A stretch of 64,000 nt of DNA, taken from a virus (taxonomy: Duplodnaviria > Heunggongvirae > Uroviricota > Caudoviricetes). Within the stretch, counting starts at the first letter, position 1. Every line of letters starts with the position of its first letter. The DNA is taken from the IMG/VR virus record IMGVR_UViG_2690316068_000002, one strand, 5' to 3'. Below, piece by piece: positions 46,201 through 50,412 of this stretch. The notes beneath the pieces are model-generated. The model was not told the origin of the DNA. It saw nothing but the letters and a program-made list of their open reading frames with translations, and made no database searches. Made by a program: the position numbers and the translations under genes.

Positions 46201-46792
46201 CTACTTTCATCGCTCGGACGTTAATCTGGTCGTAGAATGGGGTAGGGTGCGGATAAACCACGCTATAGAAGTTGTCTTTCCCGCCCGCTGTAATCAGTGA
46301 GCTTATGATTTTTGCAAAATCGTTGCGTTGGAACACGCTACCGATGTCGGAAGTGAGCAGGATGATGTTGCCTTTGGCATATGTAGAAACCAACTGTTCG
46401 AGCGAGAGACGCGGTACAAAGTAGAACTGTTCTCGTGTGTTGGCCACCGTCATTAGTTCGCAGATGTCGCGATATCCTTGCTCATTTTTAATTAGAGCGG
46501 TAAACGAGTAGTTACGTCCCCGCTCTAATGATTCCATACATCTCATAGATTCTTTAGCAAGTTTAGCCCGGTGCTCGTATGTGGGATCATCAACGATATT
46601 TAGTTTCACACCACAAATAACCGCCATGTCGTCACCAGCGGCACGTTGTAGTGGAATAACGCTCGCAATATTCATGCTATCTGCTGAAATTACAGCGGTG
46701 TAGCCAGCTTCTCTGGCAATCTTCACCGCGTTTTCTGCTTTTAGAGCCGACTCCCCAAGTGAGAAGTCAGTTCGAACCATCAGTGCCTTCAT
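43274..46792 (-). CDS. DNA polymerase III alpha-type (DnaE family) replicative polymerase
   Basis: 1172 aa; N-terminal PHP domain; [23 protein letters not shown] motif; conserved ribosome-binding context. Confidence 0.9.
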   Translation of the reverse strand: [1172 protein letters not shown]

Positions 46793-46976
46793 GTGTTTTT
46801 ACCTTTCTGGTTTTTTTGATTTTGTCATTTGGGAAGCCTACGAACTTCCCATGCATCGAAATCGCAACTTCTTTTGCTGATTGGTGACAATCGGGCTTGT
46901 CTGGACACACCAGACAAGCCTTACCAGTTTCAGAAGCAGCGATAAGAGAGCCGAAACATCCTTTACGCACGATCAA
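46767..46976 (-). CDS. Small Cys-containing protein (possible zinc ribbon)
   Basis: 69-aa ORF between CobS-like and DnaE genes; overlaps DnaE start by 26 nt. Confidence 0.25.
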   Translation of the reverse strand: MIVRKGCFGSLIAASETGKACLVCPDKPDCHQSAKEVAISMHGKFVGFPNDKIKKTRKVKTHEGTDGSN

Positions 46977-48208: not shown

Positions 48209-48303
48209 GCGTTTTTCCTTTGTTTTCTAATGAGCGTTCAACTTCTTATATAAATATATCATTATCTATCGTAAGTGGTTACTTATCATTAAGGCTGTTT
48301 TAT

Positions 48304-50412
48304 TCACTTCAAAATGATACGAGATAGTTCAGTAACTACAGATGAACCAAGACTATCAACGCTCGTTACCAGGGCATGATTTGAGTAAAATCTCTCCGGT
48401 GCGTCAGTCATGATGCCAATTGCCATCAAATCAATGTCAGTCTGCGTTTCAATTTGCTTCGCAACCGAACGCAAATGAGCGTCAAAACCTCTCCCAACAG
48501 CCCACGGCTCGCCATCGCTCAGAACAAGCATGATCTTCCTGTCCTCCATGCGACCGGAAAATAACGATGCAAGGCTGGCTATGCTTTCACCATCCACGTT
48601 ATTAAGAAGTGGGAATGTGTAGCCTACGCACCCCATACGTGAGCGAACTTCGCGAGAATTTACCTTTTCATTCCAATTTTTGATGATAGGTAGCATTAAA
48701 GATTCAAAGCGAGAGAACTCATACTTGACAGCCTTAAGTTCTCCTGCCGCCATATGACTACCAAATGTAGTGAAGCCGGTGATAATGTTGGGAACATTTA
48801 TTCGATCAAGGGCATCGGCGATGGTATATGCACTTGCAAGAGCCAATTGTATCGTTATACCCCTCATTGAACCTGATAAATCAATCACTTGTTGAACACA
48901 GGCGTTAACGGCTTTAGATTCTTCTTTTTTACGAAACACGCGATCATCATTCATTGCTAATCTGTAGATACTAGAACCATGAATGCGCCCCCGACGCTGG
49001 CCCGGTATAAACTGAACTCTGTTTCTGCTTGCTATTGCTCGCTCCAGGTCTTTTGCCAGCGTCGACGAAACACCTGACGAAAGATGCTTTTCAATATATT
49101 TGTCGAAGAGCTGGTTGCCTTCAGGAACGATGCGATAGCGGCTGATTGGACATCCTCCTAAATCAATATCGGAGAATGTTTTAATAAGCCGTTTGATATG
49201 GGCTTCTGCCTGATCAATCGAGCCGATGAAGTCGTATGAGCGATTGTATGGCCTGTATTCGCTTTTCGAGCTTTCTGTTAACTCGCTTTTAATCGTTTCG
49301 GATAGAGCATCTTCTGTCATGCCTCCGACTTCATCTTCTATGCTATCCAGCTCCTCTAAAGCCTCTTCCAGACTCATTTTTGACGGAGTTGGAATATCTG
49401 AAGAGCCGTCTTCTGTCGTTTTTCTTTTTTCGTGGTCAGCGGTTAATGATTCTGACGCCGCGTTATCAGAAGCATCAGAATCTGATACCTCTTTATCATT
49501 TTCTGTATCATCGAATATTGTTTCTGATGATTCAGAATTATCTGAATCATCACTGTCGTTATTATCATGTTTGTGCTTACTGTGTGATTCTGATTTGATA
49601 GATTTGTGATTATCTAACGATGAGGGTGTCTCATGATCTTCGTTGTCTTCATTGTTTTCTCCAGAGGCATCCGTCTGGTCAGCGTCTGAAGGATCGGAAG
49701 TTTTTCCCGGAGCTGACTCCTTACCTTTGCTTTCACTTTCAGTGTCTTTGAGGATCTTAGCTATGGTCGCAGCCACCTTTACACAATCCTCGGTGCAAGA
49801 CATGTTACGCACGGCCACATCGATACCATGTTCTTTTAATAATGAAATTGGTTTCTCAATGACAGGCCAGTATTCATCCATGAAATCTACGAACGGTGCT
49901 TGGCCATCCCAGGCTCTTACAACCGGACAGAGAAAGAAGTTTAGAAAAAGCGCGCGCTGATCTTTGCCACAATAAGCAATAGCCTCTGAAGCCTTTGGTT
50001 TAAAGACTTTTTCGATTATAAGGCGCTGAGTTGCCATCAGATTACGTCTTGTTCCGTTAAAGACCTGACCCATTTTTCGCTCGATGAACACGTCTTCTAA
50101 GGCATTCCATAGCGACCAGGAAGGAACGCGTCCTTTTTCTCTCATTTTGTTGGACACACGAATATCGGTAAACAAAATGTGAGCAACCTCATGATCGAGA
50201 AATCCGCGCACAGCATTCATCAATGCCGGTGTTGCGTTATCCGGGATTGATGGGATGTTTACGAGAATTGGCTCTCCATCATCGTTATAGCGTACATAAG
50301 CGTCGTCCCCTCGTTCTGCAACAGGGATGTTTTTACCTGAAAGGAGAGCGACTACTCGTTTTACACTGTCACGGAAGTCCTGAACCTCTTTGATGGAACG
50401 TTTTTTAGACAT
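48304..50412 (-). CDS. von Willebrand factor A domain protein, CobT-like
   Basis: 702 aa; MIDAS motif DLSGSM; long Asp/Ser/Glu-rich region. Confidence 0.6.
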   Translation of the reverse strand: MSKKRSIKEVQDFRDSVKRVVALLSGKNIPVAERGDDAYVRYNDDGEPILVNIPSIPDNATPALMNAVRGFLDHEVAHILFTDIRVSNKMREKGRVPSWSLWNALEDVFIERKMGQVFNGTRRNLMATQRLIIEKVFKPKASEAIAYCGKDQRALFLNFFLCPVVRAWDGQAPFVDFMDEYWPVIEKPISLLKEHGIDVAVRNMSCTEDCVKVAATIAKILKDTESESKGKESAPGKTSDPSDADQTDASGENNEDNEDHETPSSLDNHKSIKSESHSKHKHDNNDSDDSDNSESSETIFDDTENDKEVSDSDASDNAASESLTADHEKRKTTEDGSSDIPTPSKMSLEEALEELDSIEDEVGGMTEDALSETIKSELTESSKSEYRPYNRSYDFIGSIDQAEAHIKRLIKTFSDIDLGGCPISRYRIVPEGNQLFDKYIEKHLSSGVSSTLAKDLERAIASRNRVQFIPGQRRGRIHGSSIYRLAMNDDRVFRKKEESKAVNACVQQVIDLSGSMRGITIQLALASAYTIADALDRINVPNIITGFTTFGSHMAAGELKAVKYEFSRFESLMLPIIKNWNEKVNSREVRSRMGCVGYTFPLLNNVDGESIASLASLFSGRMEDRKIMLVLSDGEPWAVGRGFDAHLRSVAKQIETQTDIDLMAIGIMTDAPERFYSNHALVTSVDSLGSSVVTELSRIILK

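Follow-up and report, generated by a model that had tools for sequence, protein, structure and literature searches.

What does a pair of genes resembling the ATPase and adaptor subunits of a cobalt chelatase do beside the DNA polymerase gene of a phage-plasmid of Escherichia coli? The pair lies in a 64,000-nucleotide (nt) stretch of IMG/VR virus record IMGVR_UViG_2690316068_000002 (hereafter the window, meaning the whole stretch that was analysed), which by its sequence is an SSU5-like phage-plasmid: Escherichia phages PhiR41_1, CMS-2020a and Cyrano match the region at 96-97% identity, and Salmonella phage SSU5 at ~81%. The genes themselves are already known: a cluster of 3307 sequences has a 99%-identical protein as its representative, the SSU5 record already annotates the pair, a cobST cluster has been described in phages (Liu et al., 2021) and so has the MoxR-vWA-metallopeptidase architecture (Iyer et al., 2021). 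Our analysis suggests, with a probability that we would put at roughly 40%, that the pair, the CobS/CobT motor-adaptor machine in its mobile-element form, would act as an ATP-driven remodeller-protease on a protein client; that it is neither a cobalt chelatase nor a clamp loader is the position to which we commit ourselves. The two genes and their parts are listed here, with coordinates that refer to the whole window; the adaptor, ATPase, small open reading frame (ORF) and DnaE genes all lie on the minus strand.

48304-50412, minus strand: gene of the CobT-like adaptor, 702 amino acids (aa), matching Pfam CobT and CobT_C and PHROG 1576
49738-50412, minus strand: N-terminal domain of the adaptor, aa 1-225, with a predicted zincin/M48-like fold
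50179-50193, minus strand: HEVAH, aa 74-78, putative zinc-binding/catalytic motif
50080-50097, minus strand: EDVFIE, aa 106-111, the 'glutamate helix' with a candidate third zinc ligand
49093-49737, minus strand: acidic, serine-rich linker, aa 226-440, presumably disordered
48307-49092, minus strand: putative shaft segment and VWA domain, aa 441-702
48868-48882, minus strand: MIDAS motif DLSGS, aa 511-515, as read from the translation
46973-48208, minus strand: gene of the CobS-like, MoxR-class AAA+ ATPase, 411 aa, matching AAA_5 and PHROG 249
47789-48208, minus strand: aa 1-140 of the ATPase, an N-terminal extension that cellular CobS lacks
48098-48157, minus strand: CxxCx4Hx4H sequence motif inside that extension

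The 411-aa protein matches Pfam AAA_5 with E 2e-15 (57.4 bits against a gathering cut-off of 22) and PHROG 249, 'porphyrin biosynthesis', with E 2e-106 over aa 11-410, and its nearest relatives of solved structure in the PDB are Brucella CobS (E 1.8e-25, aa 141-411 aligned) followed by midasin, CbbQ and NorQ. Walker A (GHAGTGKS, aa 175-182) and Walker B (D241/E242) were verified in the translation, and K181/S182, D241/E242, N288, R312 and R367 are intact and align with K77/S78, D141/E142, N186, R210 and R271 of the Brucella protein; the AAA+ catalytic set of Walker A, Walker B, sensor 1, arginine finger and sensor 2 is thus complete. The predicted assignment to the MoxR class of AAA+ ATPases is well supported. 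The first-pass annotation, made from the letters alone, had called this a CobS-like AAA+ protein with an N-terminal cysteine cluster, and both descriptions hold: the cluster reads C18-x2-C21-x4-H26-x4-H31 plus C37 in the translation, a C2H2-like zinc-finger pattern that is kept in six of the seven aligned relatives. The whole extension is common to the homologues from Pseudomonas phiK7B1, Rhizobium RHph_N1_10 and Acinetobacter p5760_2, and a Pfam search with it returned no family match.

The 702-aa protein matches Pfam CobT over aa 9-294 (E 1.5e-27), CobT_C over aa 492-701 (E 3.7e-82) and PHROG 1576 over aa 5-702 (E 4e-301), so that the profile searches which the first-pass annotation had proposed as a check place the pair, far beyond chance, in CobS/CobT-like families. 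Its description as a CobT-like protein with a MIDAS motif and a long acidic region is likewise borne out. The linker of 215 aa contains 29 aspartates and 27 glutamates (56 acidic residues together), 36 serines and a net charge of -34, and its counterpart in Brucella CobT is a disordered linker of ~90 aa. Relatives differ in linker length, their whole proteins ranging from 594 to 864 aa. Behind it, aa 440-697 align to residues 347-616 of Brucella CobT (E 6e-17), an alignment spanning both the shaft (Q373-R413) and the MIDAS residues D422/S424/S426, and by this likeness the segment preceding the VWA domain would function as a shaft.

It is the N-terminal domain that sets the adaptor apart, since it carries an intact HExxH motif that the first-pass annotation had missed, together with the strand and order of the genes and the fact that the pair had already been catalogued. 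An AlphaFold model of the domain (pLDDT 89.6) predicts a helix, three strands, the HExxH helix and the 'glutamate helix', and NALEDVFIERKM lies 28 residues after HEVAH. No substitution occurs at D73, H74, E75, H78, E106, D107 or E111 across the 19 sequences of alignment A1, and an exhaustive homologue search (5077 hits, 516 of them below 1e-30) shows that the motif is no peculiarity of this element: of its 150 best cluster representatives 147 are full length, at 30-57% identity, and 144 of these contain HExxH. The consensus N-x-x-E-D-x-x-I-E-[KR] is common to cyanophage, Rhizobium phage and plasmid homologues, and HExxH is kept in cyanophage, ICP2, Rhizobium-phage and three plasmid homologues. 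In hhalign comparisons the domain profile matched the N-domain of the IncC plasmid VWA protein with a probability of 99.2% (E 5e-20), against 26% for CobT_N of Brucella. A marginal match of the same profile to the anti-CRISPR protein AcrIIA26 (PDB 9zq6_B; E 0.0045, 19.8 bits), which falls over the N-x-V-E-D-x-F-I-E motif at adaptor aa ~98-111 (window 50080-50120, minus strand), is probably due to chance.

Six canonical CobT genes (Brucella-type, Sinorhizobium, Methylobacterium, Pandoraea, Sphingomonas and Cereibacter) read D-[AS]-x-A-L-[RQ] at the position of D-HEVAH in the window. As none of the six retains D-HExxH, the cellular chelatase adaptor is, as judged from its motif, a dead peptidase, whereas the mobile-element adaptor usually has its motif intact. 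The chromosomal cobT of the Brucellaceae assembly GCA_012103055 (L088 3316-5380) is itself frameshifted, with the N-domain and the remainder in different frames, and because the frameshift splits the gene the database protein is only 459 aa long. Taken together, it is well supported that the 702-aa protein is the predicted adaptor of the ATPase, combining an M48-like zincin of the type HExxH…E with an acidic linker, a shaft and a VWA domain with MIDAS, and we are highly confident of this architecture and of the motor-adaptor mechanics that it implies.

Is the pair, then, the cobalt chelatase that its database labels suggest? In Cyrano (OV696614; L001 15688-19127) the pair goes under the labels 'cobalamin synthetase' and 'dimethylbenzimidazole phosphoribosyltransferase', which is a collision of names, the CobS and CobT enzymes of Salmonella nomenclature being unrelated to the chelatase subunits; for the catalogued pair in general, wrong labels of B12 or porphyrin biosynthesis are the rule. 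The assumption behind such annotations, which has been proposed for archaeal and cyanobacterial viruses, is that these are genuine auxiliary metabolic genes whose products dock on a host CobN (or a ChlH-like protein) and boost cobalt insertion and B12 synthesis. Homology to CobS/CobT, including the shaft region, the MIDAS (DxSxS) of the C-terminal VWA domain that the shaft segment precedes and all the ATPase motifs, agrees with that proposal, which is stated for viral cobST as a hijacking of CobN (Liu et al., 2021) and, as a B12 hypothesis, in the ICP2 genome paper. The equivalog models speak against it: the ATPase scores 84.8 bits against a cut-off of 558.55 for CobS (TIGR01650) and the adaptor 68.7 bits against 759.05 for CobT (TIGR01651), ~7-fold and ~11-fold below. 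The adaptor has HEVAH where the N-domain of CobT is a pseudo-peptidase, and the residues by which Brucella CobS contacts the shaft and CobT_N are not conserved in the window ATPase. Gene order differs as well: where a cellular locus has both genes annotated (four loci), cobS precedes cobT, as it does in a fifth, Brucella-type locus whose cobT is frameshifted, and the BolA and DnaJ-domain genes that neighbour four of these five loci are missing beside the phage pair. The window holds no ORF of CobN size, none apart from DnaE exceeding 771 aa.

The hosts speak against this proposal too. CobNST, whose substrate is hydrogenobyrinic acid a,c-diamide, is part of the aerobic pathway, which E. coli and Salmonella lack; Salmonella uses CbiK, and E. 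coli needs ~30 heterologous genes, including cobN, cobS and cobT, to make B12. The E. coli host is not known to have CobN or its substrate, and V. cholerae, the host of ICP2, is not known to make B12 de novo; Klebsiella probably uses CbiK as well. CobN is present in some hosts of related phages (cyanobacteria, Rhizobium, Pseudomonas). For some hosts a hijacking of CobN may apply, but it cannot explain an element of E. coli, Salmonella, Klebsiella or V. cholerae. The same cassette is, moreover, found on more than 1000 conjugative plasmids of enterobacteria. Given the sub-threshold scores, the intact peptidase motif, the reversed gene order, the lack of a CobN-size ORF and the restriction of CobNST to the aerobic pathway, the phage pair is very probably not a cobalt chelatase in this host, and a role as auxiliary metabolic genes is highly improbable.

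If the pair is not a chelatase, its surroundings may indicate what it serves. The first-pass annotation had the ATPase followed by the VWA protein, but on the minus strand the order is the reverse, the VWA gene running from 50412 to 48304 and the ATPase gene from 48208 to 46973. Its placement of the pair upstream of DnaE in a replication block is right as to position, except that the interval 46767-46976 is a separate ORF, so that 46767-50412 comprises three minus-strand ORFs (702, 411 and 69 aa) confirmed at their coordinates. Transcription would run from the CobT-like gene through the CobS-like gene and the four-cysteine 69-aa ORF to DnaE, with the following neighbours.

46767-46976, minus strand: 69-aa four-cysteine ORF between the ATPase and DnaE genes, PHROG 6337 (E 2e-45)
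43274-46792, minus strand: DnaE-type DNA polymerase III alpha subunit, 1172 aa, last gene of the apparent operon, with Pfam DNA_pol3_alpha, finger, HHH_6 and PHP
50511-50723, minus strand: 70-aa ORF upstream, probable first gene of the leftward unit, PHROG 2627 (E 1e-39)
50975-51361, plus strand: helix-turn-helix (HTH) repressor-like gene, a putative repressor, divergent from the 70-aa ORF and adjoining the CobT-CobS-DnaE unit upstream
51356-52459, minus strand: tyrosine integrase, in the region directly upstream of the CobT-CobS-DnaE unit of this plasmid-type prophage

The adaptor and ATPase genes are 95 nt apart, and the 69-aa ORF shares 4 nt with the end of the ATPase gene and 26 nt with the beginning of DnaE, overlapping frames which suggest translational coupling. 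A terminator scan found no minus-strand terminator-like site between 50412 and 43274, and a GC-rich hairpin lies at 43246-43267, 3' of the DnaE stop codon. From the gene overlap, the lack of terminator-like sites, the adjacent repressor and the cyanophage precedent described below, the pair would be expressed early, in one transcription unit with DnaE beside the repressor/integrase region. Repeat, Rfam and promoter/terminator scans of the region returned nothing specific to the ATPase-adaptor pair. The cysteines of the 69-aa ORF (C7, C21, C24 and C30), which is unannotated in Cyrano, align with the N-terminus of phiK7B1 gp060, likewise encoded between ATPase and DnaE; the Rhizobium and Acinetobacter relatives have a sigma-70-family gene at this place.

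Among annotated phage and plasmid collections, on which our sampling of lineages rests, tblastn found the ATPase in 494 phage records, mostly T4-like cyanophages, with ICP2-like vibriophages, Rhizobium phages, Nickieviruses and the SSU5 group among the remainder; a narrower-alignment search for distant viral loci returned only close SSU5-like relatives. A module of ligase … CobT-like gene, CobS-like gene, small ORFs or a sigma-70 factor, DnaE … exonuclease and RecA is kept in three elements at 35-50% identity, namely Pseudomonas phage phiK7B1, Rhizobium phage RHph_N1_10 and a 111-kb Acinetobacter phage-plasmid, the last of which also has the integrase, HTH regulator, small ORF and CobT-like gene in the order of the window. 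Cyrano reads RepA … RecA, exonuclease, gp32-like SSB, UvsY, (HicAB), DnaE, two genes, small ORF, repressor, integrase … ligase, primase, helicase, ParA. The helicase and PolA genes of an ICP2-like phage follow ~3 kb downstream of its pair, and cyanophage S-PM2 reads gp47, gp46, 'Peptidase' (CobT-like, with HEVGH), CobS, gp45, gp44, gp62 … gp43. The order CobT then CobS is found in the window and in all five phage or phage-plasmid relatives examined. The pair therefore travels with DNA-metabolism genes whatever the type of polymerase. The zinc-finger extension and the direct coupling to DnaE, by comparison, are limited to ~110-kb DnaE-type phages and phage-plasmids. In T4-like cyanophages cobS is a core gene, and it has been used as an early marker gene for P-SSM2.

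Such company invites a role in replication, and the first-pass annotation had proposed that the pair stands where clamp or clamp-loader genes might be expected. That idea fails. Neither protein matches a clamp-loader family (DnaX, HolB, gp44 or RFC) in Pfam, NCBIfam or PHROG at E <= 0.01, the relatives of the ATPase being CobS, midasin, CbbQ and NorQ, and S-PM2, which has a gp45 clamp and a gp44/gp62 clamp loader of its own, encodes the pair right beside them, so the two are not mutually exclusive. The MoxR class of the ATPase together with this coexistence disposes of a clamp-loader substitute, and related ATPase/VWA cassettes also occur in conjugative plasmids that carry no polymerase gene. 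Metal loading of the PHP domain of DnaE was discarded too, as the N-terminus of that domain lacks HxH ligands and other lineages use PolA or PolB.

A broader replication or recombination accessory, in which the motor-adaptor would remodel, activate or recycle a phage or host DNA-metabolism protein (DnaE, SSB, a member of the recombination nuclease/recombinase set, or the host beta clamp or clamp loader), is nevertheless the main rival, and synteny allows it equally. The pair forms a tight unit with DnaE through overlapping ORFs and no internal terminator-like site, elements from four host genera, at 35-50% identity, have it in the same place, elsewhere it stands beside gp46/47 and gp45/44/62, near helicase and PolA, or beside ssb-bet/recT-exo genes in plasmids, and the ATPase bears a C2H2-like zinc finger at its N-terminus. 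Yet the polymerase is DnaE, PolA or PolB according to lineage, or is absent (plasmids), and therefore no single phage-encoded replisome client is conserved; the ATPase falls outside the clamp-loader AAA+ clade, a clamp and clamp loader already adjoin the pair in S-PM2, the DnaE PHP domain makes a metal-loading role there unlikely, and co-location with replication genes may reflect no more than shared early timing. We regard this accessory role as unlikely overall, while ranking it first among the alternatives.

The early position bears also on virion assembly. Iyer et al. (2021), who recognised the same domain architecture in T4-like jumbo phages, suggested an assembly role for the MoxR-vWA-metallopeptidase pair by analogy with the MoxR/VWA tail-development system of Acidianus two-tailed virus, and an adaptor with a built-in protease would be well suited to process structural proteins. 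In every lineage that we examined, however, the pair lies in the early or replication block and not in the structural block; the early marker status of cobS in P-SSM2 and the presence of homologous cassettes on conjugative plasmids, which make no virions, point the same way, and a virion-assembly chaperone-protease seems very improbable. An anti-repressor protease of the ImmA type, suggested by the neighbouring repressor, was dropped since strictly lytic phages carry the pair.

The plasmid cassettes provide the one functional precedent. Matches to the CobS-like ATPase occur in 2272 plasmid records, 1015 of them conjugative; 995 records cover at least 80% of the query and represent phage-plasmids, while ~1460 are less than 60% identical to the window ATPase, and many of these are conjugative. 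The plasmid ATPase is encoded with a DUF3150 gene and an HExxH-VWA gene. An Enterobacter plasmid reads ssb, recT, exo, hypothetical gene, MoxR ATPase, DUF3150, VWA, and an IncP plasmid of P. paraeruginosa has a compact triad of ATPase, DUF3150 and VWA, whereas in the IncC plasmid pP99-018 the ATPase and the DUF3150-VWA genes are split by a hypothetical gene (vcrx090), ssb, bet and exo; the cassette loci on conjugative plasmids are L087 511-8504 (pP99-018), L095 6863-11335 and L096 2637-6777. All three plasmid VWA proteins contain HExxH, N-x-x-E-D-x-x-I-E-R and MIDAS. The IncC ATPase is Vcrx089, and deletion of vcrx089-090 lowers IncC transfer 25-fold into V. cholerae with a type I restriction-modification system, with no effect in a ΔhsdR recipient, and raises EcoKI/EcoBI restriction 424-906-fold in E. 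coli; the two genes act in the recipient cell and are included in AntiDefenseFinder as a two-gene system. The IncC paper that defines the hde operon makes no mention of the VWA/peptidase partner gene of Vcrx089, and our literature search found no usable functional work on DUF3150. PADLOC-DB defence models matched neither the ATPase nor the two small ORFs, and the adaptor only through a 14-bit DrmE match in its linker; a defence system carried by the phage-plasmid was accordingly set aside.

The plasmid loci touch on one further alternative, in which the pair would mature the metal centre of a non-corrin enzyme such as ribonucleotide reductase or a Mn/Fe nuclease, as NorQD, CoxDE and CbbQO suggest by analogy. 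MoxR/VWA pairs commonly mature or reactivate metalloenzymes, yfaE (ribonucleotide reductase maintenance) lies ~3 kb downstream of the IncC VWA gene, and Cyrano has a glutaredoxin gene near the pair. Across lineages, though, no candidate metalloenzyme is conserved next to the pair, an intact peptidase motif would be unexpected in a pure metallochaperone, and the anti-restriction phenotype of vcrx089-090 would be left unexplained, which makes this alternative improbable.

How would an ATP-driven remodeller-protease work? In the CobSTN structures a hexameric CobS ring grips the shaft of CobT, CobT_N is M48C-peptidase-like and binds the small AAA+ subdomain, and CobN sits between CobT_N and the MIDAS face (bioRxiv 10.64898/2026.07.21.739949). 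By analogy with these Brucella structures, six ATPase subunits would form a ring with the adaptor shaft inserted into its pore, and ATP-driven motion would reach a client held between the peptidase-like domain and the MIDAS face, the place that CobN takes in the chelatase; from the sequence of the adaptor, the client in the phage would probably be cleaved too. The context suggests that the pair is made early, as one unit with DnaE, and the likeliest client, on the analogy of Vcrx089, would be a host factor that endangers phage DNA, or holds it in check, as it enters or replicates, for example a restriction-type defence. We lean towards such a client because anti-restriction is the only phenotype known in the mobile-element clade, because phages, phage-plasmids and conjugative elements share the problem of establishing their DNA in a new cell, and because an intact protease fits inactivation better than maturation; even so, a host defence or takeover target is put forward here tentatively. 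Bolder, and rather doubtful, is the proposal that the pair is one branch of an ATP-driven anti-defence machine spread over mobile elements, in which the MoxR ring and the peptidase-VWA adaptor would capture host nucleases, for example type I restriction enzymes, and put them out of action soon after DNA entry, and the same machine with DUF3150 would underlie the vcrx089 phenotype of IncC plasmids and SXT/R391 elements.

Several observations weigh against this remodeller-protease and its anti-defence client. The closely syntenic homologues of Pseudomonas phiK7B1 (SEISK) and Acinetobacter p5760_2 (QEVAK) no longer have the HExxH histidines, and therefore proteolysis cannot be essential to, or the whole of, the conserved function. 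The window ATPase is ~30% identical to Vcrx089 (285 aa, E 4e-25), hence no closer to it than to Brucella CobS (~29%), and CbbQ_C, found in Vcrx089, was not detected in it by Pfam. Vcrx090 and DUF3150 have no homologue in the window, nor did tblastn find Vcrx090 in four phage loci (E <= 1e-3). The anti-restriction phenotype is known for vcrx089-090 of IncC only, and our literature searches found no functional work on any phage CobS/CobT pair, in keeping with the remark of the first-pass annotation that such pairs occur in phages without established function (examples are known from T4-like cyanophages, ICP2, haloviruses and jumbo phages). Lastly, promoter and terminator consensus scans of the region were not above chance, the single operon being drawn from gene spacing only.

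The DnaE end of the locus has features of its own. The start of the PHP domain (46760-46792, minus strand) has no HxH pair, the metal ligands that active PHP exonuclease domains typically possess, and therefore the phage DnaE probably has no PHP proofreading activity. Residues 1051-1168 (43289-43642, minus strand) form a C-terminal domain resembling family-4 uracil-DNA glycosylases (TIGR00758, E 5e-7; PHROG 4335/13175), and in the Acinetobacter phage-plasmid the glycosylase is a separate gene that follows a NUMOD4 insertion of homing-endonuclease type. On the other strand, a short way downstream of dnaE, the cspA thermoregulator RNA family RF01766 is matched over its full length (42577-42994, plus strand; 187 bits against a gathering score of 78), the match covering a cold-shock-protein-like ORF at 42659-42970; Cyrano has HicA/HicB at about this position.

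What is added here to the published descriptions is the retention of HExxH in mobile-element adaptors as against its loss in canonical CobT, the reversed gene order, a synteny that is independent of the polymerase, and the link to the vcrx089 locus with its overlooked VWA partner. The pair is abundant (494 phage records, 2272 plasmid records and more than 5000 representative proteins) and nearly always labelled as cobalamin or porphyrin biosynthesis. Phage cobS and cobT are routinely counted in viromics as auxiliary metabolic genes for B12, and if the pair is not a chelatase many such counts are wrong. For the function of phage cobS, a question raised since the first cyanophage genomes, a phage-plasmid of E. 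coli offers a tractable system, and the link to the vcrx089 anti-restriction locus with its HExxH-VWA partner makes a directly testable hypothesis.

Compared with known systems, the pair is most readily set beside CobS/CobT of Brucella melitensis (PDB 9ujv and 9uka; P. denitrificans nomenclature), with which it shares a MoxR-class ATPase with Walker A/B, sensors and arginine finger and an adaptor of M48C-like N-domain, acidic disordered linker, shaft and VWA/MIDAS. It differs in having ~29% identity and scores far under the equivalog cut-offs, an intact HExxH that six canonical CobT have lost, a linker of ~215 aa in place of ~90 aa, an additional 140-aa extension with a zinc-finger motif on the ATPase, and a gene order that is the reverse of cellular cobS-cobT loci, with no partner of CobN size in the element. 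Our neighbour-joining trees are too crude to give the direction of descent between the cellular chelatase subunits and the mobile-element clade.

To the phage 'cobS'/'cobT (peptidase)' group, which includes the 'porphyrin biosynthetic proteins' of SSU5, cobS of T4-like cyanophages, ORF41/42 of ICP2, cobST of haloarchaeal viruses and the jumbo-phage MoxR-vWA-metallopeptidase, the window pair belongs as a member, matching both PHROG 249 and PHROG 1576 and sharing the CobT-CobS order, the HExxH and VWA architecture and the early/replication-block location; its own lineage is marked off by the zinc-finger extension of the ATPase and direct coupling to DnaE. Like the vcrx089-090 loci of IncC and SXT/R391 and the plasmid cassette in general, it is carried on mobile elements, adjoins ssb, recombinase or exonuclease genes, and joins a CobS-like AAA_5 ATPase to a VWA partner with HExxH, N-x-x-E-D-x-x-I-E-R and MIDAS, while the plasmid ATPase is ~30% identical, lacks the zinc-finger extension and is accompanied by DUF3150 (plus Vcrx090 in IncC). 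With CbbQO, NorQD, RavA-ViaA and CoxDE the pair would share the principle of a hexameric MoxR ATPase and a VWA adaptor acting on a specific client, but the adaptors of those systems have no zincin domain and their clients (Rubisco, NorB and others) are encoded nearby.

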